NCBI GenBank assembly: GCA_036785375.1
Contig: JAWMAR010000135.1
Coordinates: 2,046,001 to 2,110,000, forward strand
Reading direction: 5' to 3'
Source: Leucoraja ocellata
Taxonomy: Eukaryota
DNA: 64,000 bases
The position numbers were made by a program, and so were the translations under genes. The notes under the pieces were generated by a model that was given only the letters and a program-made list of their open reading frames with translations, was not told the DNA's origin and ran no database searches. Shown here in pieces: positions 3,468 through 63,588 of the stretch (its first letter is position 1; every line of letters begins with the position of its first letter).

Positions 3468-4971
3468 GGTAGACAAAAGTGCTGGAGAAACTCAGTGGGT
3501 GAGGCAGCATCTATGGAGAGAAGGAATAGGCGACGTTTCAGGTCGAGAACCTTCTTCAGACTGATGCTGGGGGGGGCGGGAAAAAGAAAGGAAGAGGCAG
3601 AGACAGTAGGCTTGTGGGAGAATTGGGAAGGGGTGGGAAAGTTGGAAGAAAGCAAGTACTGCCTGAAATTTGAGAAGTCAATGTTCATACCGTATAAAGC
3701 TAATTATGAGGTGCTGTTCCTCCAATTTGCGCTGGGCCTCACTCTGGCAATGGAGGAGGCCCAGGACAGAATGGGAGGGGGAGTTGAAGTGCTGAGGCAC
3801 CGGGTTGGTTATTGTGAACTGAGCGGAGGTGTTGTGCAAAGCAATTGCCAAGCCTGCGCTTGGTGTCACCGATGTAGAGAAGTTGACACCTGGAACAGCG
3901 GATGCAGTACATAAGGTTGGAGGAGGTGCAGGTGAACCTCTGCCACACCTGGAAAGACTGCTTGGGTCCTTGGATGGAATCGAGGGGGGAGGCAAAGTGA
4001 CATGTGCAGCATTTCCTGTGTTTGGAAGGGGAAAGTACCCGGGGAGTGAGTGGTTTGGCTGGGAAGGGGCGAGTTGACCGGGGCGTTACGGAGGGAACGG
4101 TCTCGGTGGAAAGTAGAAAGGGGAGGAGATGGGAAGATGTGGCCAGTGGTGGGATCCCGTTGATGGCGAAAATGTTGAAGGATTATATGTTGTATGCGAC
4201 AGCTGAGAGGGTGGAAGGTGAGGACAAGGGGGACTCTGTCCTTGTTACGAGTGGGAGGATGGGGAGTGAGAGCGGAGCTGCGGGATATAGAGGAGACCCT
4301 GGTGAGAGCCTCATCTATAATAGAAGAGGGGAACCCCCCCGTTCCCTAAAGAATGAGGACATCTCCGATGCCCTGGTCTGGAACACCTCGCCCTGGGCGC
4401 AGATGCGGCGTGAACGGAGGAATTGGGAGGAGGGGATAGAGTCCTCACAGGAAGCAGGGTGGGAAGAAGTGTAATACAGATAGCCCTAGTAGTCAGTGGG
4501 TTTGTAGTAGATGTCGGTCAGTAGTCTGTTACCTGCAATGGAGATGGTGAGGTCTAGAAACGGTAAGGAGATGTCGGAAAAGGTTCAGGTGAATTTGAGT
4601 GCCGGATGGAAGTTAATGGTGAAATGGATGAAGTCAGTGAGTTCTGCATGGGTGCAGGAGGTAGCACCAATGCAGTCGTCAATGTAGCGGAGATAGAGTT
4701 CGGGGATAGGGCCACAGTGTGCCTCGAACAAGGATTGTTTGACTTAACCTACAAAGAGGCAGGCATAGCTGGGGCCCATGCGCGTGCCCATAGCTACACC
4801 TTGGATTTGGAGGAAATGGGAGGAGTCAAAGGAAAAGTTGTTGATGGTAAGGACCATCTCCGCTGGGCGGAGGAGAGTATCAGTAGACGGGGATTGGTTG
4901 GTTCTGCGGTTGAGAAAAAAACGGAGGGCTTTAAGACCTTCCTGATGGGGGGTGGAGGTGTAGAGTGACTG
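3468..4971 (-). mobile_element. 5'-truncated Penelope-like element (RT + GIY-YIG endonuclease + terminal repeat with hammerhead core)
   Basis: VQSLYTSTPH...QIQGVAMGTRMGPSYACLFVG (PLE RT); NLMYCIRCSRCQLLYIGDTKRRL (GIY-YIG); remnant Cys-rich linker suggests Neptune clade; 13-bp TSD gacatggatagag at 3455-3467 and 4972-4984. Confidence 0.92.
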
Positions 4972-5919
4972 GACATGGATAGAGAACTGGTTGGCAGACA
5001 GGAAGCAAAGAGTAGGAATTAATGGGTCTTTTTCAGAATGGCAGGCAGTGACTAGTGGGGTGCTGCAAGGCTCGGTGCTGAGACCCCAATTATTTACAAT
5101 ATATATTAACGATTTAGACAAGGGAATTAAATGTGACATCTCCAAGTGTGCGGATGAAACAAAGTTGGGTGGCAGTGTGGGCTGCGAGGAGAATGCTATG
5201 AGGCTGCAAGGTGACTTGCATAGGTTGGGTGAGTGGGCATATGCATGGCAGATTCAGTATAAAGTGGATAAATGTGAGGTTATCCACTTTGGTGGCAAGA
5301 ACAGGAAGGCAGATTATTATCTGAATGGTGTCAGATTAGGAAAAGGGGTGCAGTGAGACCTGGGAGTGCTTGTACATCAGTTGCTGAAAGTAAGCATGCA
5401 GGTACAGCAGGCAGTGAAGAAAGCTAATGGCATGTTGGCCTTCATTGCGAGAGGATTTGAGTTTAGAAGCAAGGAGGTTCTACTGCAGTTGTTCAGGGCC
5501 CTGGTGAGACCACACCCTGGAGTATTGTGTGCAATTTTGATCTCCTAATTTGAGGAAAGATATTATTGCTATTGAGGGAGTGCAGTGTAGGTTCACCATG
5601 TTATTTCCCGGGATGGTGGGACTGACATATGATGAAAGAATGGGTTGACTAGGCTTGTATTCACTGGAATTTAGAAGGATGAGAGGACACCTTTTAGAAA
5701 CATATAAAATTCTTAAAGGATTGGACAGGCTAGATGCAGGAAACATGTTCCCGATGTTGGGGAGTCCAGAACCAGGGGTCACAGTTTAAGAATAAGGGGT
5801 AGGCCATTTAGGACTGAGATGAGGATTTTTTTTTTTCACCCAGAGTTGTGAATCTATGGTATTCTCTGCCACAGCAGACAGTGGAGGCCAATTCATTGAA
5901 TGTTTTCACGAGAGACTTA

Positions 5920-6145
5920 TGCCCCTGTCCCACTTAGGAAACCTGAAAGGAAACCTCTGGAGACTTTGTGCCCCACCCAAGGTTTCCGTGCGGTTCCAGG
6001 AGGTTTTTGTCAGCCTCCCTACCTGCTTCCACTACCTGCAACCTCTGGCAACCACCTGCAACCTCCGGGAACCGCACAGAAACCTTGGGTGGGGCACAAA
6101 GTCTCCAGAGGTTTCCGTTCAGGTTTCCTAAGTGGGACAGGGGCA
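5920..6145. mobile_element. MITE, probably PIF/Harbinger-type
   Basis: ~85-bp near-perfect terminal inverted repeats starting tgcccctgtcccacttagg; flanked by TTA/TAA; inserted in CR1. Confidence 0.85.
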
Positions 6146-6184
6146 TAAGATTTGGCTTTTAGGGCTAAAGGAATCAAGGGATTT

Positions 6185-10430: not shown

Positions 10431-12000
10431 TTGAATATGCTGCATGAATGTAGCATGAGATGAATGTCACACAATCACGCAGAACAACATTTTTGATCAA
10501 AAGTACTGGAGTAACTCAGCGGGTCAGGGAGCATCTCTGGGGAATATGAATAAGTGATGCTTCAGTTTGGGACCCTTCTTCAGACAACATCATGTGGAAT
10601 GACTCTCCTAATGTCTCTCCTGGGTTCTACTGCTCCTCCCCTCCAACAGGGAACCTCAGTATTAACATCACTGGGTCCTGCCACCCTTCCTCCTATAAGT
10701 TTTCATGCTGCTCTTAAAATTAGATTTTTATTTCTGAAATTCTCAACACTTGGTTACACAAATAAGAAGGGCTTCTACGCAATATAAAAATGTTGCAAGT
10801 TCTTGGCATCCCTTGGGCTGCCAGAGTATTATCTACTTTCCTAGGAATAATCCCACATTTCCAATCAGGGTCAGTTAATGTCCCAGTTATCACTCACTGG
10901 CTCCAATATTCATTACTGATCTAAGTAGAGGTCATTGTTCATTTGTACAGCAGATGGTGCTATTGTAGGAATCTAGATCTTCACAATGAAACTGTTACAT
11001 GTAAAATTATACCATCTATTGGCACAAATGCAAATTTTAGGCTCTACTATATACTACGGTAATGTCTTTTGAGAGTGGGAGGGTGCAACAAATCTATGGT
11101 TAAGTACAGCTAAGGAATGCACCAACATTTTAATTGTACTTATCCATAAGAAGATTCCACATATTTTTAATTACAGTTATTTTTAATTACAGAAGTTGGA
11201 AATTAGGCTATAATGCGATCATTTTCTGATCCAGTAGGAGAACCACTGGATTGGTAGCTAGAACAGGCTTTTGCACCAAACAACCCTCTTGTTCCTTGAT
11301 GTTTTGGGTGAGGCAAATTACAATAATATTGTGGATAACCAAGAGCATTTCCAATGCCTCTGGGCCATATAATCCATATTGAAGGATGGTGTTAAGAACA
11401 ATTCTTCCTGATAATTTATCGTAACTATATCTAATGGTACCATCACGCATCTCCAGTACCCAAGAAGCATTTGTGAATGAGTTGTGACCCATAATCCAAA
11501 AGAGTCTTAACTTATTTTTCATCACTTTAAAAAAAAAAAATCATGTTGATTTTTTAGTTATGAATCCTATTAAAGCATGCAGCATGTTTAAAGTTTGGCC
11601 CTGTGTTTGTTTCACTGGCTATTTAAATTAAAAACAGCTGCCAGAAGATCCTACAAGTAGCAGCACCCCTCCAAATAAGAGGTAAATGTGTACAAAAATA
11701 TGCCCACTCCCTTTCATACAAAGGAAAGCACAATAATGGGTGATAATTCTGATTTTTTAAAATAGCGCTCATTTTGATAGTTTGCATTTCATATACTGGA
11801 TATTTTGTCCGCTATGTGTAAGTTTTATAGTATTGCGAGGGTGCCATTTGTAGAGCTCGATATTCTCTGTATATTCTTGTTTGTTCTTAATTTATCCAGC
11901 AATAACTGTTTATGTGAATATCACCTCAGTTTGACAGAGATATGACAGAATAGCTTTTAAATTACTGCTGCATTGCATAGAAACCTGGACCAGTACTCCA

Positions 12001-12091
12001 GGTGGAGTCTGAAGAACTGTAACCTCACCTATTCCTTTTTCCAGAGATGCCGCCTGACCCACTGAGTTACTCCAGCGTTTTGTGTCTATCT
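12001..12091 (+). mobile_element. Solo PLE terminal-repeat fragment
   Basis: GTCTGAAGAA...CCAGAGATGCCGCCTGACCCACTGAGTTACTCCAGC; 11-bp TSD ccagtactcca (11990-12000, 12092-12102). Confidence 0.8.
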
Positions 12092-13022
12092 CCAGTACTC
12101 CACAATTTAACCAACTGGAATTTTTCTTTTTAAAGATGCAGTGACCAAAGAAATTACAACCAAATTATTGGGGGGAAAAAACTCATCTGGTTTAGAGATC
12201 CATTCGGGCACAACATTTTGTAGATTGGCCATTCTGTCACCCTAATCTGAATTGACCTGGTCTTGTGAGTCAGGATCGCGATTCCAAAACAAAATCAAGG
12301 TGTGTTAATTCCAAGACCTGAAAATGATTTACCAGGAAGCAGGTTAACAGGGTGAGCTATAAGTACTCTTCCACTCCCACTTTAGTGATATGGAGAGGAG
12401 GCCTGGGCCTAAGCTTCCGCCACCTCCCGCACGTTCCTCCCTTAACTCTGTATTCAGTACCACTTATGTGTAGTCTTAACATATGATTGTCAACCCCTTT
12501 CTAAATGAATTTGTCACTTACCTCACTCCTCATATTATTCAATATGCTAACAGATTTTATTTCTCCACTGTTCCACTGAAAAATGCTATCTGAGCACACA
12601 GGGTTGTGACGTTTGTTGATGCCCAACACAGCCCTCATGTGATGTTGAATCCTGTCAGACATGGGTGGGAAGCAAAGTCTCTGATCGTGTACAGTTACAT
12701 CCATCTGCTACCCATAACCAATCTGGCCGAAATGACACCAGACGCAATGACGTGGCAGATTTTCAATTGCCCTCTGAAATGACCAAGCAAGCCACTTAGT
12801 TCAAGGCCAATCATGGATATCGTCATCACATCCTGCAACAAATATATAATGCCAACCAACCACTTATAATGACAACCACTTTCTTGAACACCTAAAAAGT
12901 TGATACCACTGATAAGTTAAAGCTAATGTTTTACTCATTTATTATTATTTCTCGTATATCTCTCCAATTGGCCCTGATTAAGTTTACAACAGCATTGAAG
13001 AGATCCACGTGTTGAAAATTAG

Positions 13023-13060
13023 TGAGTCTGAAGAAGGGTCCCAACCCGAAACGTTACTTA
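13023..13060 (+). ncRNA. Minimal type I hammerhead ribozyme motif in solo PLE repeat (13021-13120)
   Basis: tgagt-CTGAAGA-A-GGGT(ccca)ACCC-GAAA-C-GTT-actta: stem I tgagt/actta, stem II GGGT/ACCC, intact core. Confidence 0.7.
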
Positions 13061-13234
13061 TCCATGTACTCCAGAGATGTTGCCTGACCTGCTGAGTTAC
13101 TTCAGCATTTTGTGTCTTCCTGCTCCTTATTTATTTTTAAATCGCCTTTCAACTTTAAATGGAGTCGCTATTTCTGAGAGCATTTGTGTCTATCTTTAGA
13201 CATTTGGCATTTTGCAGTGACAGCATCATAATAA

Positions 13235-13325
13235 AGATAGACATAAAATGCTGGAGTAACTCAGCAGGCCATGCAGCATCCCTGGAGAGAAGGAGTCGGT
13301 GACGTTTCGGGTCGAGCCCCTTCCT
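13235..13325 (-). mobile_element. Solo PLE terminal-repeat fragment (hammerhead core degenerate)
   Basis: AGATAGACATAAAATGCTGGAGTAACTCAGCAGG...GACGTTTCGGGTCGAGCCCC. Confidence 0.75.
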
Positions 13326-14842
13326 CATATTAAATATAGCTATAAAAAAAAATTGGCATGCATGTTAGGAAAGCCATTTAATAGCTCTCATCCTAGTACA
13401 CAAATTGATTCAAACTCTCGTGTCTCTGGAGGAACAACATACCGCTGGGACCCAAATTAAATGTAATGTCCAAAATGGTACGTTTACACAGGGGAATCTG
13501 TAGAGATCGCTAGGAGCCAAACGCTAGTGATTATTATGCCAACCACAGCAGGAGTTCATCTGAAATACAAATTAGGCAAAAAAATATGGTAACATTATAG
13601 CCTTCAGCTATAATTGGCTTGTGAGTGATTTGAAGTTATTTCTACAAGATAATTAATGTAATTTAAAATCATCAAAATGACTAGGAAATCTTTTCTTCAA
13701 CTGACAAAATAGTTAACAGTCAACTGTCCTACAGTTGAGCTCGGGTAAGTGCAATCTTGAGTATTTGTGAGACATCATTTGACCTGCAAAGCAAATGAAC
13801 TATGAAGTTACTCCCTGGAGCTTGTTGCAGGAGATATCCCTGTTGGCTCCACACACCGAAGCTGTTCTTCCAGAAAGCTCCCAGTGAAACACCATCAAGA
13901 TTATTTTGTTACAATAATCTTGCAGAGATTGGATTTTTTGATCAAAATGATTTTTAGGCTTCAAAAAGTCCTTTCCTACGACTTTTCATTTTATTAATAA
14001 AAAAGTTGATCGTGAGGAAACGGCATCTGACACAAACACCTGAGTTGAGCCCACACACAAGATTATCAACAAATTAGTATCAAACAGTTTGGAGGAAGAA
14101 AGTAAATGCAAAAAGCTGCCCTTCTAGGACCTGACATCAAACCTGGACCGACAAAACATGAGGCTTTGAAGTGATGCCACCCATGATAAATCCACATGGC
14201 CATCCGAGTTAGGTGCTGGAATATTGCTAGTGATCATGCTTAACTAATGGGTGGTACATGGAGAGTGTAAACCTGAAGAAGGCAGCAGATTAAAAACAAA
14301 CGCATGCACACACACCACTGACAAGATCATAGTCGTGAATAATCTTATCATCGTCATTGTTTACATCCCCCACTGGCCTTCACATGACATCAGTTTAGCA
14401 GTGTTAAATTCAAAATCGAGGCTGAAATCTGAAATAAAAAGTGATAATGCTGGAAATAGTCAGCAAAACAGACAGCAAAAGTGGCGAGCGAGAGAGAAAG
14501 TTAACTATTGAAGTTAGTGAAGGGACCATTCCTGATGGCATCTGAATGAACGCTTACTTATATGAAACATTAATGCTGTCTCTCTCTGCACTGAGTATAT
14601 CCAGTATTTTCTGTTTCTATTTAGTAATTAGCAATCTAGAGACCTGGAGTAAAGTTCCATAGTCATAAGTACAAGTTCTGATCACCCCATTGCAAGAAGG
14701 ATTTGGAGGCTTTGGAAAGGGGGCAGAGGGATTTTACCAGAATGTTGCCTGGATTAGGGAATATTAGCTACAGGGACAGGACGGACAGACTTGGATTGTT
14801 TCATCTGGAGTGCTGGAGGTTGCAGGGAGACCTGATAGAAGT

Positions 14843-15067
14843 NNNNNNNNNNNNNNNNNNNNNNNNNNNNNNNNNNNNNNNNNNNNNNNNNNNNNNNNNN
14901 NNNNNNNNNNNNNNNNNNNNNNNNNNNNNNNNNNNNNNNNNNNNNNNNNNNNNNNNNNNNNNNNNNNNNNNNNNNNNNNNNNNNNNNNNNNNNNNNNNNN
15001 NNNNNNNNNNNNNNNNNNNNNNNNNNNNNNNNNNNNNNNNNNNNNNNNNNNNNNNNNNNNNNNNNNN
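14843..15067. other. Assembly gap (225 N)
   Basis: Run of N. Confidence 1.
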
Positions 15068-15930: not shown

Positions 15931-16119
15931 GTGTAGGAAGGAACTGCAGATGCTGGTTTAAACTGATGATAGACACAAAAAGCTGGAGTAACTCAGCAGG
16001 ACAGGCAGCATCTCTGGAGAGAATGAATGGTTGACGTTTCTCGAGACGAAACATCACCCATTCCTTCTCTCCAGAGATGCTGCCTGTCCCGCTGAGTTAC
16101 TCCAGTTTTTTGTGTCTAT
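15931..16119. mobile_element. Fold-back (inverted) PLE terminal-repeat element
   Basis: Inverted arms 15969-16040 / 16048-16119; 14-bp TSD atttgtttaaaaat (15917-15930, 16120-16133). Confidence 0.88.
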
Positions 16120-18089: not shown

Positions 18090-18208
18090 GTGTAGGAAGG
18101 AACTGCAGGTTTAAACCGAAGATAGACACAAAAAGCTGGAGTAACTCAGCGGGTCAGGCAGCATCCTTTTGGAAGGATCCTTTTCTCTAGGGATGCTGCC
18201 TGGCCCTA
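18090..18208. mobile_element. Partial fold-back PLE terminal-repeat element
   Basis: GTGTAGGAAGGAACTGCAG...GGCAGCATCC / GGATGCTGCC; TSD catgtaaaatgat(gt) at 18077 and 18209. Confidence 0.8.
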
Positions 18209-20360: not shown

Positions 20361-20392
20361 CACTGGATACCTCCAACAAGCTTAGCAAGTTG

Positions 20393-20520
20393 TAGAAACA
20401 CGGAACTGCAGATGCTGGTTCACACAAGAGGATATAATTGCTGGAGCAACTCGACAAATCAGGCAACATCTCTGGGGAACATGGACAAGGGACATTTCTG
20501 GTTAAGGACCCTTCTTCAAA
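20393..20520 (-). mobile_element. Diverged solo PLE terminal repeat
   Basis: GGAACTGCAGATGCTGG...GCTGGAGCAACTC...GACCCTTCTTCA. Confidence 0.7.
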
Positions 20521-21571
20521 CTTAGCACATTGCTTCAATTCACCAAGAAGAGGCCGTTTACCATCTCAGCCGCCCAATTTGAACACTTGCATATCTACCT
20601 TCACAACAAGTGGATAAATAAAGGGAAATATTCAGTACTTCGAATGGTAAACTCATTCAGGAACGTTTTATAGCATATCCAAGTTTGCTTTACTGAGATA
20701 AGTGATTCCTATAGCATATAGGCTGCTATGCACCATGTATCTAACATGTTCCTTTGATCTTTGGCACTCTTCATAAATAGGTAATGAGGATCTTTTTTTT
20801 GTTAATTTGCACAGCTGAAAATGTTATCTGGTATTGTGTTTATTCTAACAGATATCTTTGTTGTCTGTGTGAGAATTGAATTATCATTTGAAGATTTTGA
20901 TGTTAACTAATAACTCAAATTTTATTTGAAAGCATGTTGGCCCAAGTTTTGTAGTTTTCCCTTTGACATATGCCTGCGTTCATTTAGATGTTAAATGATG
21001 TTGTCCCTAAAGTAGTTAGTAATGTGAGCAAAGTGGTAGGGGGAGCTAGACAGGGCAAGTAGGGCCTGGGTGGGCTGAACATCCAGCACTTTCTCACTGT
21101 GAGCGCATGGATTACACCTGGGTACTCTCATTTTCTCCCACATTCCCAAAATGTGCCAGTTGGGTGGGTGAATTGGTCAGTATAAATTACACCGTACACA
21201 TGGGTGGTAGGAGAACAAGGGAGGAGTTGCTGGGCATGTGAGAGAATAGATTACCAACAAATAAGTAATGGCATGGATTGATTGGATTATCATTTGAAGA
21301 GCAGGCTGAATGATCTCCCTGGATCTAGTGGGTTGCATCGTTTTCAATGTTGTATGAAATAAAGGGTAATTGTAATTGGGAATAGCATTTACTTTCTGTA
21401 ATTGGTATCTACATTTTAGGAGCATCAACGTCTCAATTATAAGCGGAGGCTGGCTTATAATCATGTCATTTTTAAAAGCTACAAACCAAAGGAAGAAACG
21501 TTGTCCTGGACCGCATTATAGTTGTGGAGTGATTATCCAGCTAAACCCAACCAGATCTGCCTTGCCATTAA

Positions 21572-23165: not shown

Positions 23166-24029
23166 ACTGCAACTGCTCATCAGAACTAGCACAAACAGTT
23201 TGTGTTCGCCTCGTGGGAGTAATCAAAACTTCTTCAATAGCATTTATTATATATTAAGCAGCATATTAGACAGTTATTAGTTGTAACATGTGGGGCTTTT
23301 GCTTTAAGTTTGAGTTACAGAAATAGTTACTCCAATTTTAACCCATGGCATGCTTGAGCCGGAAGAGATCAGCATCAATTTTCTCCTAACTCACTTTTAC
23401 TGAGATGTTATACGTGAAGTGGATTATTTAAGTAGTCCAGGCTTCATACCCGGTCTGTACCTGGTATCAGATCCTTGAACAAATGGGATTGAATGACTAT
23501 CAATTCCTTCTCACCAGAGATGCTGCCTGTCCCGCTGAGTTCCTCCAGCATTTTGTGTCTATCTTTGAATGGATATCCAGCAGGCAGGATGGAGACTAAT
23601 AGCGATTGCAGTCAGGAAAGGGGAATAGGAGGGTGTAGAAGGATGATTGGAATTTACTTTTGAGAGTCAGGGGGAGGGGGAGGGATTTTAAGGTTCATTT
23701 CTGATAACGCAAACTCACAAGGAAACTAAGAGTTGAAATAAGCTGGTCTTTGCAAGCCTAAAACCTTGATTTAGGGTTCCTTCCCTGTGGAGCAGCCTTC
23801 CCTGGCAAGCCCCACCCACATCTGCAATACAATCTTGGGAGAAAGTTGGAACAAAATCAGGATGGTTCGGATCATTGTCTTAGATTCAATTTTTTGAATC
23901 ACACTGTTATTGTTAGTGGTGAAGTTATATTAAGCACGGGTCCCTTGCACGATTAGCATACTTGGTCTGAGTGAAATGGGTTCATGTGCTAAATGGCCTT
24001 TGCTCTGTCTTATTTGTAAGTCTCAGGTA

Positions 24030-27290: not shown

Positions 27291-27294
27291 AGAA

Positions 27295-28249: not shown

Positions 28250-28651
28250 TTTGTTTAAGAAGGAACTGCAGATACTGGAAAATCGAAGGTTCACAAAAAA
28301 GCTGGAGAAACTCAGCGGGTGCAGCAGCATCTATGGAGCGAAGGAAATAGGCAATGTTTCGGACCAAAACCCTTCTTCAGACTGATGGGGGGTGGGGGTG
28401 GGGGGGCGGGGACAAGAAAGGAAAAAGGAGGAGGAGCCCGAAAGCTGGGGGATGGGAGGAGACAGCAGGAGGGCTGAGGAAGGGGAGGAGACAGCAAGAA
28501 CTAACAAAATTGGGAGAATTCAATGTTCATGCCCCAGGATGCAGACTCCCCAAGCGGAATATGAGGTCCTGTTCCTCCAATTTCCGGTGTTGCTCGCTCT
28601 GGCCATGGAGGAGACCCAGGACAGAGAGGTCGGATACGGAGTGGGAGGTGT
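28250..28651 (-). mobile_element. Truncated PLE 3' end (GIY-YIG C-terminus + terminal repeat)
   Basis: Closely similar to 62119-62510; 16-bp TSD ataatcaaacattata (28234-28249, 28652-28667). Confidence 0.9.
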
Positions 28652-29117: not shown

Positions 29118-29240
29118 ATAGAAAGGAACTACAGAGACTGGCTTATACCAAAGATAGACACAAAGTGCTGGAGTAACTCAGAGGATCAGGCTCCAGATGC
29201 TGCCTGACCTGTTGAGTGACTACAGCACTTTATGTCTATC
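29118..29240. mobile_element. Fold-back PLE terminal-repeat element
   Basis: GATAGACACAAAGTGCTGGAGTAACTCA / TGAGTGACTACAGCACTTTATGTCTATC; 12-bp TSD ctggtatagcaa (29106-29117, 29241-29252). Confidence 0.8.
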
Positions 29241-33179: not shown

Positions 33180-33208
33180 GTAGGAGTCTTCAAATAATAT
33201 TTAGCAAT

Positions 33209-33300
33209 CTGAAGAAGGGTCTTGACCCGAAACGTCGCCTATTTCCTTCGCTCCATAGATGCTGCCTCACCCGCTGAGTTTCTCCAGCATTTTTGTCTCC
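33209..33300 (+). mobile_element. Solo PLE terminal repeat with intact hammerhead core
   Basis: CTGAAGA-A-GGGT(cttg)ACCC-GAAA-C-GTC at 33209-33236; ~21-bp degenerate TSD cttcaaataat... Confidence 0.8.
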
Positions 33301-33548: not shown

Positions 33549-33728
33549 GTGTAGGACGAAACTGCGGATGCTGGTTTAAACTGAAGATGGACACAAAAAG
33601 CTGCAGTAGCTCAGCAGGTCAGGCAGCATCTCTGGAGAAAAGGAATAGGTCCTTTGGCAGAATCTCTGGAGAAAAGGAATAGGTCCAGAAGGGTCTCAAC
33701 ACGAAAAGTCACCTATTCCTTTACTCCA
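33549..33728. mobile_element. Rearranged PLE terminal-repeat element (internal duplication + inversion)
   Basis: ATCTCTGGAGAAAAGGAATAGGTCC duplicated, then inverted GAAGGGTCTCAACACGAAAAGTCACCTATTCC. Confidence 0.75.
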
Positions 33729-33966
33729 ACTTATGTCTGGTGAAATAATCCTTCGCTGAAAAGAGCAGGTTAAAATAGTTGAGGAAATTAACTCCCCCTC
33801 ATCCTTGCTATCACTCTGTGGTTGTAATTGTAAGTGCCTAACCACAAGTTTCCGCCAGTTGGCAGCTCGGATTAGAAATCGGTTATTATCTACTTTTACA
33901 ACCATAGTACACAAAAACGTATCCTGTGGTTGCATTATCGTACAATCATTTGTTTTTTCCCCACAG

Positions 33967-34063: not shown

Positions 34064-36494
34064 ATGTAAAGCTAGCTCAGCTGCTGGACAGTCAGGGTGA
34101 CCAGTGCACATTAACCTTGAAGACTGACTGCCACCCAGTCAGGTGTGTCGTGTAAAGAAATTGTTAATACTTTTTTTGTCGGCTTTTTTGTTGAAGAGAA
34201 TATGCTAGATTTTATATCAGAACGAAGTACATGCTTACTGTGTGCAATGGACTTTATTCAAAATTTTAAAATATTGTCTGTTTGTGCAATATGTCTTAAA
34301 ATGCAGTGTTATGTTTGTGGATTTTTATTAGCTGCCATTGCTGCGTTTGACGCCGTTTAGTTTTGCTTGTTCTTTCCATTTTTTCACCCTCTTGTTCACC
34401 TTTCCGGGTTGACTTCTTTGCAGTGCAAACCACCCTTTAATCTGTGCCTTACTTATCAAGGCTTCATAAAGTTCCTTTCTTCCTATTAGCAGTCTCAAGC
34501 ACTGATTTTGTTTTGCTCTCATTGTCAATTGACAGCAATAGCCGAATAGGCTGATTATCTGCACAAGTCAGAAACACCACTGCAAACCTGCCTTTATATA
34601 ACGTTTCAATTGTAGAAAAACATCCCAGGTACTTTCACTGTATGAATGTCGGATGAAATGCACAGTATTACCCACAAAATCAAACCAGCCAGAGATATAA
34701 GAAAACTGATTAAAGGAAACTCCCTGCTTTCCAATTTCCTTGCATGCATTGTATTAGCAAGTTTATCGGAGCCTCTATAAATTGGAAATCGGCTTTCATG
34801 AAAAGGCCATACAGTCACAACCACCAGCACACAGCAACTATAAGGCTTTCAGTCAGTTCTGCTCACGTTTTTTAAGTGATAATTTGAGCCTAAATCTTGG
34901 GCTCTTGTTCTGACTTCCATCTAACATCCATCTGCTTTTTTGGAATCTACAATTTTGTGCTCAATTCATGCTAATGCAATGGTCCAGTAATTCATTCAAT
35001 AGGCAATTGATGTAGTTTTGAATGTGGATTAAACATTCAATGTCCAAGTAGTCCCTTTCTTCCAACCACATAACAGCTCAAGGCCAAACACAAAACTTCA
35101 TGCTGAGGGTGCAAATTGCAGGATAAATTTACAAGTACTTTATATAAGCAACCAACCTCAAATTTCAGTGAACACTGTCAAAAAATTGATCGCAAAGTAA
35201 TTGTTTGAAATTCTACCCCAATGAAAATAGGATAGTAAATTTCAGTCCTACAGAAGTCAAAATCTCAAAAGAATTGTGGCCACAACAAGTAGAAATTTAA
35301 TTTAGGACCCATATGAAAACAACATGGTACTTTCTATTTCTGAATATTAATAGAAGAATTGTAAAGAAAGCAGATTCTGTGTTCCTAATAAGAAACTGTT
35401 AACACAGTGAAGAGTCTGTAAATTGAATCAAGTTATGTAACTACTACAAAATATATAATGCAGAAGCATTTACTTTGTCATTCAATGTAATTTACTTTTA
35501 TTTTGATTTTGTTTTGATATTGTAAACTAAAGCTGCTTTGCAGCCTTAGTTAGAAATGTTGCATAATGTCGAGTCAATTTTACCAGTATGATTATTTTTC
35601 CCCCACGCTTTCCATTGGCCCAATACCAAGCTGTCTGATTTTGCAATTTTAATGTACTCCAGTTGCCTCTGTTGTGGAGGTTAGTTTATTTCAAAAGTGA
35701 ACACAATTCAATTGCCATTTCAAAATTTCTTGACTCTGCACAGTGGAGGTCAAACTTTATTTGTAGCCCATGATTTCCTCCAGCATGGGCCAACTACTTG
35801 TTTCAATAAATTACAAAGAAGGAACTTGACATCGCAGTGTTCAATAGAGAAAAATATTTTGCAAAAAGAACAGGAGACGATGGAAATATCTAGAACATAA
35901 TACAACGTTATGGAGAGAGACACAAGAGTTAAGAGTTCCAGGTTGATGATATTTTGGTTTTCATGAAAGGCAGTCTGTTCATTTCTTCACATGCTGCCTG
36001 ACGTGTTCAGTATTTACAGCCTTTTATGTTTTATTTCAGATATCCTGCAACTGCAGGACTTTGTTCTCTGTTTTTGAAATGGTATTTTAACAGTATGGAG
36101 GGAAGCATATAAAAAGGCAATTTAAAAATATTAGACAAATAGTTTCAGCAAAACTAGAAAGCCTGTTAAAACGAGTGATTTTTTATCTAATATCTTTTGT
36201 GTACACACACCTTGTTCTCTGCAACATCCTACAGCCCTTATTTTGCATGCAATATTTCTGGGTTGCTTTGCCTGGCTTTTGATATTGTCAATAAAAGGAG
36301 AACTGAAAATGCAGTGGGTAAATGGCAGGTCCGTAAAAATCTGTAAAAAGAAAAAGTTGAATACTTTTGATAGATTTCAGCTATTGTTTATAATTTTATT
36401 TTAAACATCAAGTTGTGCAGCAGTTTACCTGCCATTCAACCATGCATGTCCCAACTGTGATTGAACCAACCTTTTTTTCTTTCTGAACAATTGT

Positions 36495-43010: not shown

Positions 43011-43034
43011 TAAACCAGTGTTAGAGTTTCATTT

Positions 43035-43305
43035 GTAGACAAAAGTGCTGGAGAAACTCAGCGGGTGTAGCAGCATCTATGGAGCGAAGGAAATAGGCAA
43101 CGTTTCGGGCCGAAACCCTTCAGACTGACATAGGGTGGGGGAGGCAGGGCACAGAGGGGGGAGCAGTCAGTGAGGAGGTTGTAAAACTCTTCGGAGGGAG
43201 GAGGAGAACTTCTTCAAAGTATGCATACCTTGAGGAGATTTCGCAGTGGAGTAGACAAAGTGTTTAAGAGGGAACTGCAGATGCTGGAAAATCGAAGGTA
43301 GACAA
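43035..43305 (-). mobile_element. Circularly permuted ORF-less PLE-derived element
   Basis: Starts and ends with gtagacaa; terminal-repeat halves in swapped order; 12-bp TSD agagtttcattt (43023-43034, 43306-43317). Confidence 0.82.
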
Positions 43306-44316: not shown

Positions 44317-44320
44317 AACC

Positions 44321-44420
44321 CGTCTGAAGAAGGGTTTCGGCCCGAAACGTTGCCTATTTCCTTCGCTCCATAGATGCTGCTGCACCCGCTGAGTTTCTCC
44401 AGCTTTTTTGTGTAACCTTT
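44321..44420 (+). mobile_element. Solo PLE terminal repeat with intact hammerhead core
   Basis: CTGAAGA-A-GGGT(ttcg)GCCC-GAAA-C-GTT at 44324-44351. Confidence 0.82.
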
Positions 44421-52424: not shown

Positions 52425-53044
52425 CTGTAAAAGAAAACATTATTATTATTGTGCAAAGTAGTTGATAAAAGTTAGAAAAATTGTTTCCCATCTATTTTCT
52501 GGAAAATCCTTTCAATTTTACTTTAATAAATTACTGATCTAGGAATTCTTTGAGAAGTAATGTACTTCTACGTCATTAAAAATATATTAGTTCCAATATA
52601 GGAAAAGGAGAAAAAAAAAATTAGGATCCAATTACTTCATGTTCATTTCCAAATTAGGGACAAGTGTAAATAAAAATCACACAAATTCAATGACCATAGT
52701 CTATTATTTGTTAGTAAGTAATATGTGGCATTGGTAGAACAGACTAGAGAATATGTTACCCATGTCAGTAGTTTTTGTAATAAAATTCAGTAGATGTCTT
52801 AAATGTGATTTTGCAGCTACAATTATATTGTAAAATGGGATTCCTCCATAACAGGCTGTCAAGCCTTCACAAAGCTTGCCCTATCCAACAACATGCTCAT
52901 TAATATTTCAGTCATATTTCATCCATGATTATGAATTGAGATCTATTATAGTTTGAGATATCACAAACAAGTCATTTTGTACCTGAAATGCTTACACTTC
53001 CACTAGTCTTTGGTGTATAAAGCATTTTACGGCAAATAAAAGAG

Positions 53045-53158
53045 CTACAACCTGAAGTGTTGCCTGCACATTCCCTCCCCAAATGCTACCTGACCCACTG
53101 AGTAGCTCCAGCGCTTTGTGTTTTGCTCAACCTTCCATCATCTGCAGTTTGTGTCTCC
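53045..53158 (+). mobile_element. Old solo PLE terminal repeat
   Basis: ATGCTACCTGACCCACTGAGTAGCTCCAGCGCTTTGTG...CATCTGCAGTT. Confidence 0.65.
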
Positions 53159-54046
53159 ATGTTAACATTTCTTTGTTCACAGTAAAATTATGATCTTGTA
53201 TATTTGAAAAGATATTCCCCAACCACTTCAGTGAAATGAAATGGTAGGTTTGCACTGCAGTATGAGCTTTGTTAATGCACTCACCTTGTGCTGCTGCATA
53301 CTTTTGTGTATATGGCCAGAATAGATGGCAAGGCCACCCCACAAAGTGAACTGCTTTGTGAGTGACAACTAGGCCACAGGCAGTGGAACCCAAGACTATG
53401 TCTAGATTATCCCAATAACCTTTGGTCACCACAAGCTATTAGAAAGTCTTCTTGCTTTTCCCAGAAGTGATCTATATAGAATTCAAATATAAGTTCAACT
53501 AGGAACACAAAGTTAAAAAAAAAAATGTAGACCAGTCACCCTATTCAAATGAATAAGGGTATACTAGATACACCAAGTGCGGCTGGCATGTCGCTTTGGG
53601 GCCTAATACCAAAGGTAACCGGCCCCATGCTCAGCGGGTTATAGGACTCTGCTTGATGAAAAAGTCAGATAGATGCCTTTGACCTCCAGCATATTCTGTA
53701 CACAAGTACTGGCATCTGGAATGAAGCTCTTATTGGATCTTTATTGAGTTACCAGCATGAGCATGATCTGGACCGTTTGATTTCTTTATATATCCTAAAA
53801 AAAACACCAGTGCTTAAAAGGAGATACAAATTTGTTGTTTAGTACTGTGTCTATCATTGCTATTTTCAAAATGGTCAGGACTGCTCTAAATCGTTCACAC
53901 CTCAACATTGCAAAGAACTTGCACAAATTTGAGGTGCAACATAAATACACGGTGACTGCAGCATTACAATAGAATACACATATCAGATTTGAAACAAAAA
54001 TCTTCAAAATGCAATGTTTCTTGAGGGACAGAAATTAACAGACCAT

Positions 54047-58502: not shown

Positions 58503-60130
58503 GGCGGCGTCCGAGCAGCGGCCGGGGAGGCCGCTGCGTTGTTGTTGTTGCTGCTGCCGCCGCCTCCGCCGCCGAGCGCCTTTCCGATCGCTTTTACTCC
58601 GATGCCCGGTTACCGCGGCGTCGCCAATGTCCATTTATAACAGAGCTGGGTGTCAGCGGACGATGCCGCTGCCGCGACCTGGTCTCCGGCGGCTCGGCTC
58701 CTCTCCCAGAGCCATCACTACACGGCGGCCGCGGCGGCTGTGGTTGTGAGTTGGAGCCGACTAGCCGCGAACGGCGCCTCCATCCGAGCCGCTCCGTCCC
58801 TCTGGCGATCCGCTGGGCTCGAGCCTCCGGCGCCCGCCTCTCGCCATTCGCGAGGACTCGCCTCCCGCTCGGCCCCCGGTCTCTCTCTCGCCCCCTCCTC
58901 CTCCGAGCGGCGGTGGCGGCCGCTGCCTTCTCTATCCGCGGGAGGGAAAGGATGGGGAGAAGGAAGGAGAGGGAGGGAGGGAGAGAGAAGAGGAGGGGGA
59001 GGGGGGGGTGGGGGAAGGAAGGAAGGAACGAGCGTGCGAACCGAAGGAAAGCTCAGTCCCTCGCAACCCGCCCCGACATGGCCACCATTACCCTCACCCC
59101 GCGGCGGCTCTCCTGCCTTCCTTCCCACCGCGGACTGCCCGCTGACGGTTACAGCCCGCCCCCTGTTTAAACGCTGCCCGGGTTCGGAGGAGGAGCGCGA
59201 GGGGCGACCAGATTTTTGTTTCAAATGGTGGAAACGTTCGGTTTTAAAAAGAGAGGAAAAAAAAACGGAAAGAGCTCGAACGCCGGTCACGTGACTGGAA
59301 GAAAAAAGAAGGTAACGAAGCGCCTTTCCCAATGCCTGATCCGTTTCATCCTTGCGAAAAAAAACACACGTTGATTTTCCCCCGCCCCCCATGACATTAA
59401 TATCCTTTCTTTTTATGAAGACGCATGCAAAATAAATATCATCGATTGAAGTTTTTTTTATTTGCCAACTTTGGCCCTCGTGAAACCCTTGATTTGAAAG
59501 CATTTCTCCTTGTCTGCGTTCGCATTGCTTTTTGCGTGGTGCGTGTCTGAGCAGACGGGCGGGTGACTTCCTTTTTATAGGGGGGGTTGGGTGGCTGCGC
59601 ACCGTCCTTTAGCCAATGACAATAGCGTCGGTGGAGGTCCTTCGTGAACGGGGCTGGGGCTCCCCGCGGGTTCTGCTGGGATTTGTAGTTCTTCACTCGC
59701 CCCATCATGGCGGACGACATCATCGTGCCTGTTTACTTCGAACTACAACTCCCAGCAGTCACACCGCATTCATTTTAGCCGTTTCCATCAAAGATCCTGG
59801 TTTCCATTGCGTCTGCTCGATCCGCCAACCATGTCGACGTGATCGAACCCACCCCCTCCTACATGATTGGTCGAAAGCTGCGCCGGCGTAGCATTTCCCG
59901 AAGCCGATTGGTTACTCCGGCCGTCGATCATCCAGGGTGGACCGCGGGCTGAGCAGCCTGGTTCGCGCAAAGCTCGATCATTATTCGGGATCATGGCGGC
60001 TGGACTGTCAGTGTTGTGTTGTTCCCGCTCGCTCACCCGTGTGCTGCGGGTGAGCAAATACACGTCTCTTTCTGCGACCGTTAGAGTTGCCAAGGAGCCG
60101 AAGCAATGGTACTCAGTCGGCAACTTGACC
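58400..60130. promoter_or_regulatory. CpG island / bidirectional promoter of MSL2 and PCCB
   Basis: High GC and CpG content; GTCACGTGAC at 59286-59295; GC boxes ~59380 and ~59557; CCAAT/ATTGG ~59613, ~59866, ~59906; SBS motifs at 59673-59689 (-) and 59742-59758 (+); YY1-like ATCATGGCGG at 59704. Confidence 0.85.
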
Positions 60131-60211
60131 GTGCAGGAGAGAATCGAGAGGAAGTCTCAAAGGGCGATGCTAGGAGGAGGTCAACACAGGATAGATGCCC
60201 AACACAAGAGG
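59993..60211 (+). CDS. PCCB: Propionyl-CoA carboxylase beta subunit, coding exon 1 (mitochondrial transit peptide ... VQERIERKSQRAMLGGGQHRIDAQHKR)
   Basis: atcATGg start; Arg/Ser-rich presequence; LGGGQxRIDAQHKR matches the end of PCCB exon 1; gtatgt donor at 60212; conserved synteny. Confidence 0.95.
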
Positions 60212-60519
60212 GTATGTTTGAGACATCGTCTGTATTTACAAAACGCCTTTACGGCAACTCTGGCATATGTTTAATTATTACCTTCCTTTTCTAAACGTTC
60301 TGTTTATTTTCGATATGTCCTTGGTCTAGTAGGTACCCCTTCGGTAGGTACCCCTTCTGGTGCCAGACTGGGAGGCATTCATTGATGACATTTGTCACTT
60401 ATGTTATCAGTGTCATTTGCTGGGTAGTGCGACGATCGCTTACATTTTCCTGGGGTGATATTTGGTGGTGCTGCTTAAAGGCATCTTTGTAACAATTATG
60501 TGAGACTTCCAAATAACAA

Positions 60520-60675
60520 AAATAACGCCAGAAATAGTCAGCAAGTCAGGCAGCATCTGTGGAGCACGAAAATATAACGTTTGATGACCGTGACTCCACC
60601 CGAAACGTCACCTACCCTTGTTCTCCGGTGGATGCCGCCTGACCTGCTGAGTTATTCCAGCACTTTGTGTCCTTG
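60520..60675. mobile_element. Fold-back PLE terminal-repeat element
   Basis: TCAGCAAGTCAGGCAGCATC ... CCCGAAACGTCACC ... GATGCCGCCTGACCTGCTGA. Confidence 0.7.
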
Positions 60676-61199: not shown

Positions 61200-61292
61200 A
61201 TGAAGGGTTTCGGCCCGAAACGTCGCCTATTTTCTTCGCTCCATAGATGCTGCTGCACCCGCTGAGTTTATCCAGCAATTTTGTGTACCTTA
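61200..61292 (+). mobile_element. Solo PLE terminal repeat (5' part of hammerhead core lost)
   Basis: GAAGGGTTTCGGCCCGAAACGTCGCCTATT...CACCCGCTGAGTTTATCCAGC. Confidence 0.8.
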
Positions 61293-62118
61293 GCATTTAC
61301 TCATCTTTTTTTCATTATTTTGTGATGTAAAAAACTGATGGGTAATAACTAGAAGTGCACACATTTGTTACCATGCTGTAGAGGAATTTGCTCTTTTTAA
61401 AAAATTATTTTCTCAGTTCTGGATTTCTGTCGGTAACATTATTAGGACAATGGTGAACCCATTCGTAATTTTCAGAATGCTCCCTCCCTACTCTGAAGAT
61501 GGATACTGACCTGAAATGTCGTCCGTCTACTCCCTCCACAGATGTTGTTTGACCTATTGAAATCCGCCAGCACCTTGTTTTTTCCACATGATTCCAGTTC
61601 TGCAGTCTCTCCTGTCATATTCATGAGCTATCACCCATCTTATCATAAATTCAGAAAAACTATGTTCTGGTATCAACAATTTGTATGTCTGAGATAAAGT
61701 AGGTATTAACATTACCGCAATCATTAAATAGAAACAAAATATAGCTCCTTGCTTCCATTGTTTCCATAGCATGGTCTCTAATTCAACACCTGGTTTATTT
61801 TTTGAAATACTGTTTCCTTTAGATTGTTTCTGCAACGGGGAAACATCTACTAATGCTAGAAATCCTCAAATAAAAGCAGAAAACTCTGGAAGTGCTCGGC
61901 ACCTTATGTGAAGAGTGGAACAGTTGATGTTCCAGGTTGCTGACCTTTCGTCTAAAGGTCAGATGTGCTTCTAAAAGGCTATGGATTTGAAACATCAACT
62001 CTTTTACACTCATAACAGATGAGTACTTCCTGCTTTTTATCATTTAAATTGCTTGCTTTGGTTTTGTCAAAATGAATTAGCTTCCTTTTTATTATTGGCT
62101 GCAAATCAATTTTAATGT

Positions 62119-63200
62119 GTTTAAGAAGGAACTGCAGATGCTGGAGAATCGAAGGTACACAAAAAAGCTGGAGAAACTCAGCGGGTGCAGCAGCATCTAT
62201 GGAGCGAAGGAAATAGGCAACGTTTCGGGCCGAAACCCTTCTTCAGACTGATCGGGGGCGGGGGTGGGCGGGGACAAGAAAGGAAAAAGGAGGAGGAGCC
62301 CGAAGGCTGGGGGATGGGAGGAGACAGCAGGGGGACTGAGGAAGGGGAGGAGACAGCAAGGGCTAACAAAATTGGGAGAATTCGATGTTCATGCCCCCAG
62401 GATGCAGACTCCCCAAACGGAATATGAGGTGCTGTTCCTCCAATTTCCGGTGCTGCTCGCTGTGGCCATGGAGGAGACCCAGGACAGAGAGGTCGGAGAC
62501 GGAGTGGGAGGGGGAGTTGAAGTGCTGAGCCACCGGGAGGTCAGCTTGGTTATTGCGAACCGAGCGGAGGTGTTCAGCGAAACGATCGCCCAACCTCCGC
62601 TTGGTCTCACCGATATAGATCTGCTGACATCTAGAGCAGCGGACGCAATAGATGAGGTTGGAAGAGATGCAGGTAAACCTCTGTCGCACCTGGAACGATT
62701 GCTTGGGTCCTTGAACGGAGTCGAGGGGGGAGGTAAAGGGAGGGGGTGGTACGAGAGGGAAGGGAAGAATTGACAAGGGAGTTATGGAGGGAGCGGTCTT
62801 TGCGGAAGGCAGATATGGGGGGAGATAGGAAGATGTGGCGAGTGGTGGGGTCACGTTGGAGGTGGCGAAACTGACGGAGGATTACTTTTTGTATGTGACG
62901 GCTGGTGGGGTGAAAGGTGAGGACTAGGGGGACTCGGCCCTTGTTGCGAGTGGGGGGATGGGGAGAGAGAGCAGTGTTGCGGGGTATGGAAGAGACCCTG
63001 GTGCGAGCCTCATTTATGGTGGAGGAGGGGAACCCCCGTTCCCTGAATAATGAGGACATTTCAGATGTCCTGGTGTGGAACGCCTCATCCGTGGAGCAGA
63101 TGCGGCGTAGACTGAGGAATTGGGAGTAGGGGATGGAGTCCTTACAGGAAGCAGGGTGGGAAGAAGTGTAGTCCAGATAGCCATGGGAGTCAGTGGGTAT
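62119..63200 (-). mobile_element. 5'-truncated Penelope-like element (RT thumb + GIY-YIG + terminal repeat with intact hammerhead core 62219-62246)
   Basis: PTDSHGYLDYTSSHPASCKDSIPYSQFLSLRRICS; CISSNLIYCVRCSRCQQIYIGETKRRLGDRFAEH...RKLEEQHLIFRLGSLHPGGMN; TSD aattttaatgtgt (62108-62120, 63201-63213). Confidence 0.93.
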
Positions 63201-63489
63201 AATTTTAATGTGTAATGTAATAACCATTGGCCTAAAAGAATCAATAAAGCAAAAACATGTTAAGTTCACTCATTTATGATTGGGCAAGTAAACTTTTGAT
63301 GCAAATGCAATAATTCAAGGGTTAATTAGTTCACCTTGTGCATATCCTTGTGGCTCAAAGTTCTTTAGCTGTGAACCAGTCACAACTAACAGAAGGATTA
63401 AAAAATTCACAATTTCAGGACTTGACATCTTACAAATGAGATTTTTTTTTTAAATTGCATTTTTTTTAAAAAAGCTGACAGCTTTTTCT

Positions 63490-63588
63490 AAAGATGGACA
63501 CAAAATGCTGGAGTAACTCAGCGGGACAGGCAGCATCTCTGGAGGGAAGGAATAGGTGATGTTTCAGGTCGAAACCCTTACTCAGACT
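63490..63588 (-). mobile_element. Solo PLE terminal repeat (hammerhead core degenerate)
   Basis: GGACACAAAATGCTGGAGTAACTCAGCGGGACAGGCAGCATCTCTGGAG...GTTTCAGGTCGAAACCCTTACTCAGAC. Confidence 0.78.

Follow-up and report, generated by a model that had tools for sequence, protein, structure and literature searches.

The 64-kb window, by which we mean the whole stretch of DNA analyzed, carries 23 loci (29 arms) of one short repeat, grouped from profile matches and together making up 8.4% of its length (Table 1). The dense repeat described in an earlier note on this DNA is thus real. The profile was built on 14 window copies and returned 34 matches, 29 of them at E<0.01; the E-values of the seed copies are inflated because the seeds were taken from the window itself, and a reversed-window control gave a single match (E 3.5). 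Each short copy corresponds to the pLTR, the terminal repeat of a Penelope element (PLE) of Neptune type. An ORF is absent from 20 of the 23 loci, the main product being a bare pLTR or a pLTR pair, and five loci have an inverted arrangement. The typical copy is ~95 nt long; joined to the known PLE tail of ~36 nt, which we judged by eye to be present in about 10 of the 23 loci, it gives a 131-nt form. The ~130-nt unit proposed earlier therefore describes the tailed copies but not most of the family. Flanking TSDs of 11-16 bp, also claimed earlier, were found at 11 of the 23 loci, and none of 1000 random position pairs scored equally well. The A+T content of these 11 TSDs is 74%.

Table 1. Copies of the repeat in the window, with the parts of the most informative copy.
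Feature	Position	Strand	Remarks
Neptune-type PLE, 5'-truncated	62118..63200	-	RT thumb, GIY-YIG endonuclease, C-rich 3' UTR, pLTR and tail; 13-bp TSD (62108-62120, 63201-63213)
Minimal type I hammerhead at start of 62k pLTR	62219..62248	-	2-bp stem I, CUGAAGA, extra A, stem II GGGU-uucg-GCCC, GAA, ACGU; predicted cleavage after 62219
Optional tail of 62k PLE, 35-36 nt	62118..62153	-	predicted to pair back on AGAUGCUG stretch
1.5-kb 5'-truncated PLE, frameshifted	3466..4971	-	RT core to pLTR, short end; 13-bp TSD; inside older LINE; hammerhead at 3532-3559
400-bp PLE end	28250..28651	-	end of endonuclease, UTR, pLTR, tail; 16-bp TSD; ACGU palindrome mutated
Solo pLTR, starts at G	44322..44416	+	93/93 bases same as 62k PLE end; 14-bp TSD; ~90 bp AT-rich filler ahead of start
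Solo pLTR, full hammerhead	33202..33300	+	14-bp TSD, 1 mismatch
Solo pLTR, type A	61200..61291	+	begins 4-7 nt into unit; TSD not found
Solo pLTR, type B	13022..13118	+	full hammerhead, 6-bp stem I
Solo pLTR, type B	13234..13330	-	separate insertion facing 13022..13118 copy; weak 10-bp TSD
Solo pLTR, type B, starts at G	10498..10586	-	no clear TSD
Solo pLTR, type B, stem II deleted	12001..12091	+	11-bp TSD
Solo pLTR and tail	20388..20522	-	11-bp TSD, 1 mismatch
Solo pLTR, type B, G8 mutated	63491..63589	-	TSD not found
Decayed solo pLTR and tail	61491..61615	+	may reach ~12 nt into C-rich UTR
pLTR truncated below hammerhead	23503..23565	+	~13-bp TSD, 2 mismatches
Head-to-head inverted pLTR pair	15931..16119	.	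tail on one arm only; 14-bp TSD; 5' half of hammerhead missing
Head-to-head inverted pair	29118..29240	.	tail on one arm only, without hammerhead; 12-bp TSD
Tailed pLTR 3' half	18092..18208	-	short inverted piece on 5' side; 15-bp TSD
Inverted pair	33549..33730	.	internal 34-bp duplication; tail on reverse arm
Older inverted pair	60534..60673	.	
Decayed copy and tail	53040..53160	+	
Heavily decayed copy	35964..36050	+	
Heavily decayed copy	61871..61952	-	E 0.0067
ORF-less mini-element	43035..43305	-	271-nt insertion, one circularly permuted turn; 12-bp TSD

By tblastn, a region from the RT core through the endonuclease could be placed on the copies at 3.5k and 62k. Of 269 candidate homologs, 160 reached E<=1e-10, with the best matches (62-69%) being chondrichthyan, and the GIY-YIG domain was matched at E 0.0008, under the Pfam cut-off. 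The order, a PLE-type RT followed by a C-terminal GIY-YIG domain, is that of EN+ PLEs, as is the anatomy (30-40 bp optional tail, inverted truncated partner, TSD). The CX2-5CxxC linker between RT and EN, common to Neptune and Nematis, is deleted in the 62k copy; its CxxC half is found in the 3.5k copy, its first half in loose ends of the family at 62738, and the whole motif in homologs P0001-P0003. Among vertebrate PLEs, Li et al. (2026, 10.64898/2026.07.22.740005) found only Neptune and Poseidon. The PLE origin that had been proposed is supported, as is a linker of Neptune type. Neptune PLEs (PMC8557442; Arkhipova, 2013, PMC3846280) likewise have an RT, the CX2-5CxxC linker and then a GIY-YIG domain with CCHH, as well as a hammerhead in the pLTR and a 30-40 bp optional tail at one end, and canonical PLE insertions described there share the inverted 5'-truncated partner and the long TSDs. 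In contrast to canonical PLEs, the skate family is dominated by the bare pLTR or pair and has a sharp 5' boundary.

The copy alignment contains at least 3-4 sequence variants, instead of the two subfamilies first suggested. Identity to the PLE terminus, asserted earlier for the repeat as a whole, holds for subfamily A, in which the 44k and 62k copies agree, but not for subfamily B, which matches the A ends at ~70-87%. All ORF-bearing loci in the window belong to A (3 of 7, against 0 of 16 for B; p 0.02). Between the 3.5k and 62k copies, identity is 74% in the ORF and 83% in the pLTR, and because ORFs diverge faster than pLTRs, the excess of pLTRs is 5-8-fold at most. The very high copy number claimed for the family is supported. 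At 0.36 loci per kb, its density in the window is far above that of the ~4,000 motifs reported for coelacanth and ~9,000 for Xenopus by Cervera and de la Pena (2014, PMC4209133). Pattern scans of metagenome contigs and viral contigs gave no match to the family.

A minimal type I hammerhead core (CUGANGA / GAAA / UH) with stem II and a palindromic stem III is present, and all five motifs quoted in the earlier note were recovered at the same positions and with the same letters. Core, stem II and ACGU are complete in only 5 of the 29 arms, and several inverted copies have no hammerhead at all, so that "hammerhead-bearing" fits those five arms while most are incomplete. The complete arms and the conservation of the core support the class assignment. 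With copy boundaries set by eye, mismatches at the 11 invariant hammerhead letters number 6/165, compared to 229/1391 in the rest of the unit (column-permutation p 0.0007); the core is thus better kept than the remainder, whereas the earlier note had named the lack of such a difference as refuting its reading. Its statement that stem II varies but stays paired is correct as to pairing (82% of cells), but in a small sample of 19 aligned arms none of 22 tested pairs in the hammerhead stems showed a two-sided compensatory change. Stem II variation consists of wobble pairs and CpG decay; at 3.5k, the AGGU/ACCU stem results from reading a mutated copy in a shifted register.

The core shares several features with the motifs of Cervera and de la Pena (2014, PMC4209133): a minimal type I core with an extra base after A9, stem II opened by a G-C pair, a palindrome at positions 15-16, a predominance of single motifs, which were put down to truncated PLEs, and some close opposite-strand pairs. 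In the skate copies, stem II is 4 bp and most have a stem I of just 2 bp, and no fixed 5' end is described in the accessible part of that paper. The suggested check against the Rfam hammerhead model came out negative, with no hammerhead family among 16 matches to the window at E<=10. A hammerhead motif without stem III may lie outside the Rfam models. MIR530 and the other Rfam matches all fall under their gathering scores, and the top ones sit on inverted pLTR pairs. In predicted folds of A copies, G8/A9 are buried in an alternative helix, and unconstrained cofolds of these copies give non-hammerhead duplexes; fold z-scores are unremarkable (-0.7 to 0.6). Among the copies tested, stems I and II are predicted to form unaided in the 13k copy only. 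In one fragmented poly(A) run, a library that says little about self-cleavage, RNA ends did not pile up and cleavage ends were not seen.

The 5' ends of the copies are discrete. After exclusion of nine loci (five inverted, three decayed, and the 43k element), 10 of the 14 direct copies with a readable 5' end begin within an interval from -2 to +7 relative to the first G of the hammerhead; for this interval, which was chosen after the fact, smooth truncation models give a binomial p <= 4e-10. The random breakpoints that the earlier note had named as a sign of simple truncation are therefore not what is seen. The clustered ends sit on an initiator-like TCAGTC, and in long copies the sequence of this site, ATCAGTCT, agrees with the initiator consensus. 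The A at -1 is kept in 6 of 8 solos (in one case inside the TSD) and the C at -2 in only two; the solos are without the TC of the site. Ribozyme cleavage can be rejected as the source of these ends because they lie in a cluster 30 nt above the site of cleavage; the duplicated pieces at 33.6k are the only ones to begin at that site.

Reads and contigs of related species, not demonstrably the window's own, show the same boundaries. The commonest 5' breakpoint with unrelated flanks (agreement 0.33) is the G at 62248, with 463 reads in run X22, 382 in X8 and 343 in X2, and it is among the six loose ends listed in three of four runs. Depth in X22 drops from 5185 at 62211 to 289 at 62256. Loose ends at 62252, also among the six listed per run (560 reads in X22, 409 in X8), run into C-rich UTRs of other subfamilies, and many copies extend upstream there. 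The 3' ends lie at 62118 (693 reads) and at 62153/62154 (444 and 435), and these two family ends are the borders of the tail.

With moderate confidence, we favor a run-off reading: cDNA synthesis by the PLE reverse transcriptase would be primed within the repeat, close to the 5' end of the element's own RNA, and would continue to the end of the template, the transcription start. The pLTR would carry an internal promoter, with RNA starting at the A or G just ahead of the hammerhead. Judging from PAc in vitro, the PLE protein would nick AT-rich DNA on both strands and begin cDNA on either side of the tail hairpin arm, at +95 or +131. A start in the 5' pLTR would leave a copy of 95 or 131 nt, a start in the 3' pLTR would leave ORF-bearing copies that are randomly truncated, and priming on both strands would leave head-to-head pairs with the tail on one arm; the resulting insertions have TSDs of 11-16 bp. 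Run-off is supported because 5' ends cluster and 62248 recurs across runs, because the 44k solo is the same as the ORF-bearing 62k end, because the 3' ends match a 30-40 bp tail that has been tied to two internal RT start sites (Frangieh, 2024, PMC11167929), and because the TSDs are AT-rich. It is also supported because core letters are conserved across variants even though A folds bury G8/A9: the hammerhead may be maintained by selection in active parents and lie idle in nearly all genomic stubs. Hammerhead motif counts in fish genomes would then reflect mostly idle PLE stubs and not working ribozymes. Counting against this reading, no position in the poly(A) run is shared by many molecules as a start or an end. 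The copies that extend upstream at 62252 also weigh against it.

Known PLEs offer parallels. Transcription of D. virilis Penelope and Chlamys-3 starts in the pLTR from an internal promoter. For PAc, the Poseidon of Anolis, the 5' end of the RNA determines product length in vitro and extension occurs on both strands, and the skate family resembles it in the two internal RT start sites defining the tail, the AT-rich targets, the use of both strands, and the absence of RNA-seq reads at the cleavage site (Frangieh, 2024, PMC11167929). PAc differs in belonging to another clade and in being known biochemically, the skate element being known from sequence alone. In vitro work covers only one PLE protein; for the question of how pseudo-LTRs, tails and inverted ends arise, three base-precise boundaries at very high copy number are a natural readout of enzyme start and stop sites, and the run-off reading predicts the transcription start site. 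The surprise is moderate because hammerheads in the pLTR, tails, inversions and pLTR-derived non-autonomous elements have already been published.

A possible, if doubtful, alternative is that tailed solos form a self-propagating SINE-like family with its own internal promoter, copied in trans by the PLE protein. It is most plausible for subfamily B, which it fits equally well because no ORF-bearing copy of B is found in the window, and it can coexist with run-off. The discrete ends agree with it, as does the tailed solo, which contains the predicted RT-start hairpin; in Adineta, pLTR sequences are enough for mobilization in trans, and Chlamydomonas has non-autonomous PLEs. The Chlamys elements, such as MRC1, similarly lack ORFs and share ends with autonomous families, but belong to a clade without a canonical hammerhead and are often multicopy head-to-tail (Craig, 2021, PMC8557442). 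Against it, the bases of one A solo are the same as those of an ORF-bearing end, the initiator-like TC is missing from the solos, and the lack of ORFs in B may only reflect greater age, with divergence hiding them in this window. The pLTR is not enriched in poly(A) RNA (from the same study as X8) either: in one species its ratio to the endonuclease is 8.0 there, about that of DNA-like contigs (6.8), a weak test because short non-polyadenylated RNA is lost from the library; RNA reads are about equal on both strands, and 87% continue into unrelated sequence. The earlier idea of a separate non-autonomous RNA system is thus not shown, since the A solo equals the ORF-bearing end and the inverted pairs, tail and TSDs are standard PLE anatomy, but it survives for B and for the mini-element at 43k.

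This ORF-less element, with its own TSD, consists of the last 8 nt of the pLTR, the tail, a ~87-nt 5' extension (43260-43174), the C-rich UTR and the pLTR, whose core carries a 3-nt deletion; the unit is 263 nt. A second reading frame of its body matched no homolog, and P0122 is an unrelated WD40-like match. The one-turn permuted insertion hints at a circular RNA template and is relevant to a model from 2014 that invokes circular RNA. Non-LTR retrozymes (PMC7229834; Li et al., 2026, 10.64898/2026.07.22.740005) are also ORF-less, pLTR-derived and equipped with a type I hammerhead; dispersed monomers occur, one chondrichthyan is among the reported hosts, and the 43k unit is within their size range. 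They differ by definition: their units stand in tandem, with two or more complete hammerheads, and they have circular RNA where this was tested, whereas the 43k core is broken and none of 17 TRF rows for the window is a tandem of the repeat unit. The "retrozyme" label is not supported, as no copy in the window is tandem and most arms lack a complete ribozyme. More speculatively, and in our view rather unlikely, skates may harbor a ribozyme-headed SINE-like system, derived from the Penelope terminal repeat, of 95/131-nt internal-promoter units and ~263-nt ORF-less mini-elements, the latter copied exactly one turn around circular RNA, with several hundred thousand copies in all. If so, the genome would preserve, as fixed ends and one-turn copies, a trace of a strong-stop and circular-template step in Penelope retrotransposition.

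It is improbable that 3' pLTR priming always occurs and that the RT stalls, or joins the target, where the hammerhead meets the C-rich UTR. A stall site remains a candidate because the 5' cluster coincides with the border of the C-rich tract, which lies directly above +1 in the 43k element and in each of the three ORF-bearing copies; heavy 5' truncation is a known trait of PLE insertions, and Cervera (2014) took single hammerheads for truncated PLEs. However, a stall should smear into the tract or hit the near side of the structure, and the observed break is at the far edge, at nearly one base; the retention of A at -1 but rarely of C at -2 is also against it. An origin by recombination, as for solo LTRs, with the two direct pLTRs of a full-length insertion as partners, is very unlikely: it too would fix the 5' end, allow both kinds of 3' end and keep the TSD, and has been proposed for some rotifer solo pLTRs, but the homology is only 95 bp, full-length copies look rare because depth drops ~2.5-4-fold from endonuclease to thumb, inverted pairs are unexplained, and the 44k copy is still undiverged.

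Two further features of the boundaries were noted. A pyrimidine tract and CAG precede the hammerhead, and a donor-like site follows the 43k tail; a splice acceptor seems unlikely, as no solo has exon-like upstream sequence. Tiny inverted arms occur just above solo starts, a weak signal (score 37 vs 30 expected, p 0.02).

A dense family of sequences from the terminus of a Penelope-like element (PLE) is real in the window, and its borders are sharper than simple truncation predicts. With a search profile built from 14 window copies of the PLE terminal repeat (pLTR), we obtained 34 matches, 29 of them arms (single pLTR copies) at E<0.01; the reversed window, used as a control, gave one weak match. 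An earlier note's count of about 25 copies in 64 kb, right in scale, becomes 29 arms in 23 loci. Three loci are ORF-bearing PLE ends (0.4, 1.1 and 1.5 kb), 11 are direct solo copies (ORF-less lone pLTRs) with readable ends, five are head-to-head inverted insertions, three are decayed and one is a permuted mini-element. The five hammerhead motifs quoted earlier are all present, letter for letter, and insertions do carry their own target-site duplications (TSDs), of 11-16 bp at 11 of the 23 loci; 0/1000 random position pairs scored as well, and the targets at these 11 loci are 74% A+T.

To locate the borders, we mapped four public runs on 62060-63260, around the ORF-bearing PLE at 62118-63200 (-) ("62k"), at 80% likeness. 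The runs, one of raw poly(A) RNA (X22, of which about 6% was read) and the contig sets X2, X8 and X14, come from relatives that may not be L. ocellata. Among the loose ends listed, the commonest lay at 62118 and 62153/62154 (3' side) and at 62248 and 62252 (5' side). At 62248 the flanks do not resemble one another (agreement 0.33) and therefore mark true insertion borders; those at 62252 are C-rich UTRs of other subfamilies. Starts cluster likewise in the window, where 10 of 14 readable direct copies begin between -2 and +7, counted from the first G of the hammerhead, and these boundaries support discrete 5' ends as opposed to random truncation. Depth over the pLTR exceeded that over the endonuclease region 8.0-fold in X22, 6.8-fold in X8, 5.2-fold in X2 and 17-fold in X14, ratios that are upper bounds because ORFs diverge faster. 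Summed contig depth is 5-9 x 10^5 times the flank, which is not a copy number; the locus density in the window, 0.36 per kb, suggests copies of similar order. High-depth contig joints in X2 and X8 connect 62236-62240 with 62206-62209, 30-32 bases apart; they may reflect fold-back junctions, a tandem duplication or an assembly effect of 31-mers.

Rays, sharks and skates provide the closest named homologs of the window PLE protein, and the ORF pieces map to chondrichthyan and invertebrate PLE proteins over their RT core, thumb and GIY-YIG regions. A CX2-5CxxC linker, a mark of Neptune and Nematis (Craig 2021, PMC8557442), is complete in the homologs, partly kept in the PLE at 3466-4971 (-) ("3.5k") and also found in family loose ends at 62738 in the mapping on 62k. 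This linker, which Nematis shares, is consistent with the suggested Neptune-type parent. Translated PLE terminal sequence also occurs in P0121, a predicted Leucoraja TRIM-like protein (residues ~276-373), where it is probably a gene-model artefact; P0057, an Amblyraja kinase isoform, likewise contains PLE RT sequence.

All 11 hammerhead core letters are kept in 7 of 19 aligned arms. Four of the seven have a 4-bp stem II and the ACGU palindrome in a common register; the 3.5k arm has both only in a shifted register. Core nucleotides are kept better than the rest (6/165 versus 229/1391 cells off majority, p 0.0007), which points to selection on the core in parent PLEs. Two-sided change, which would back a stem II that varies with pairing kept, occurs in 0 of 22 pairs among aligned window arms. 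Most copies have a stem I of 2 bp. In subfamily A copies the predicted fold places G8 and A9 inside a different helix; among the copies folded, only the solo at 13022-13118 (+) is predicted to form both stem I (probability 0.71) and stem II (0.97). A tandem-repeat scan found no tandem pLTR copies in the window, and head-to-head pairs are unable to form a sense-sense dimer. Taken together, these features make ribozyme activity improbable in nearly all genomic stubs.

For one PLE protein, Frangieh 2024 (PMC11167929) showed nicking and extension of both strands at AT-rich sites; reverse transcription began at two internal positions close to the ORF start that bound the tail, and the product became shorter when the RNA 5' end was trimmed. 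The transcription start has been placed in the pLTR (Schostak 2008; Craig 2021, PMC8557442). In the skate family, pairing between tail and pLTR is predicted to form a closed hairpin, with 93.6% of cells paired. The 5' end cluster is positioned on ATCAGTCT, an initiator-like site. In the simplest joint reading of these observations, cDNA primed in the 5' pLTR would run off early and insert as a solo, whereas inverted pairs with one tail would arise where both strands are primed; the family would then work like ordinary PLE retrotransposition. The solo at 44322-44416 (+) fits such an origin in being identical to the ORF-bearing 62k end at 93/93 bases. Between its left TSD and its start lies a ~90 bp AT-rich short-period repeat (44232-44321), whose last 7 bases are complementary to stem II; this filler may reflect reiterative synthesis during insertion.

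Evidence on a separate non-autonomous, SINE-like system is divided. ORF-bearing loci make up 0/16 of subfamily B versus 3/7 of subfamily A in the window (p 0.02), and the permuted mini-element at 43035-43305 (-), with a 12-bp TSD, is ORF-less; against this, the 44322 solo matches an ORF-bearing end, and the family is at most a candidate SINE. The retrozyme label fails in the window: retrozymes are defined by tandem repeats and circular RNA (Cervera 2020, PMC7229834), whereas the window copies are not tandem. Tandem retrozymes derived from pLTRs, one chondrichthyan included, are described in Li 2026 (10.64898/2026.07.22.740005).

The mini-element has the same 8 bases at both ends, at the short RT start site, and therefore represents a 263-nt unit copied through one complete, permuted turn; its hammerhead core has a 3-nt deletion. 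One turn, seen here in a single example, would be expected if the template were circular or if synthesis jumped from one terminal repeat to the other, along the lines proposed in Cervera and de la Pena 2014 (PMC4209133). The extension after the mini-element's tail aligns with part of a predicted Leucoraja erinacea protein at 35/41 residues; in that protein the match runs from pLTR through tail and extension directly into a stretch resembling translated PLE 3' UTR (10/11 residues). This suggests that the protein, a gene model and not DNA, represents a second such deletion derivative, its left breakpoint being about the same. An ATG 35 nt past the tail opens a short frame, 43226-43174 (-), that may be the true PLE ORF start; its bases also resemble a splice donor.

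In X22, 11,882 of 7.3 million records map to 62060-63260. Reads over the pLTR come about equally from both strands, 87% of mapped reads continue into unrelated sequence, and the poly(A) reads show no pile-up of starts or ends over this interval. The pattern fits passive transcription within host RNAs, though poly(A) data could miss circular RNA or a short RNA lacking a poly(A) tail. Across the UTR and ORF of the PLE (62265-63207), one first-mate strand predominates among the X22 reads, about 1.3- to 4.4-fold depending on the bin; in a library of the common stranded kind, this strand would be antisense to the element.

Lone minimal hammerheads across fish genomes and close opposite-strand pairs have been known since 2014 (Cervera and de la Pena, PMC4209133), and tails, inversions and TSDs are standard PLE features (Craig 2021, PMC8557442; Arkhipova 2013, PMC3846280; Goubert 2022). 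Our search, with most subscription journals, Repbase and Dfam outside its coverage, found no published account of the skate family or of a fixed solo-pLTR 5' end.

Neighbouring features in the window
Feature	Position	Strand	Remarks
MSL2 RING + CXC domains	50794-52491	-	Pfam; main exon
Other non-LTR retrotransposon fragments	4964-5480, 46697-47179, 32063-32578, 1048-1578		First two: RVT_1 + ALKBH8_N matches (Pfam); first interrupted by the 3.5k PLE
Second dispersed repeat	812-1009, 20120-20361, 27424-27641, 32661-32893		200-240 bp, 4 copies, 70-76% identity
Two assembly gaps	14843-15067, 41600-41731		First followed by GC-rich tandem repeats of 39 bp and 45 bp

The window covers intronic and intergenic sequence surrounding the MSL2 gene, whose probable first exon lies in a GC-rich island (~58520-58640, -). 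A frame at 31155-31481 (+), which had no match in Pfam, resembles a PP2A B'' subunit exon and is a putative one; another at 59867-60274 (+) may likewise open a gene for a mitochondrial enzyme.
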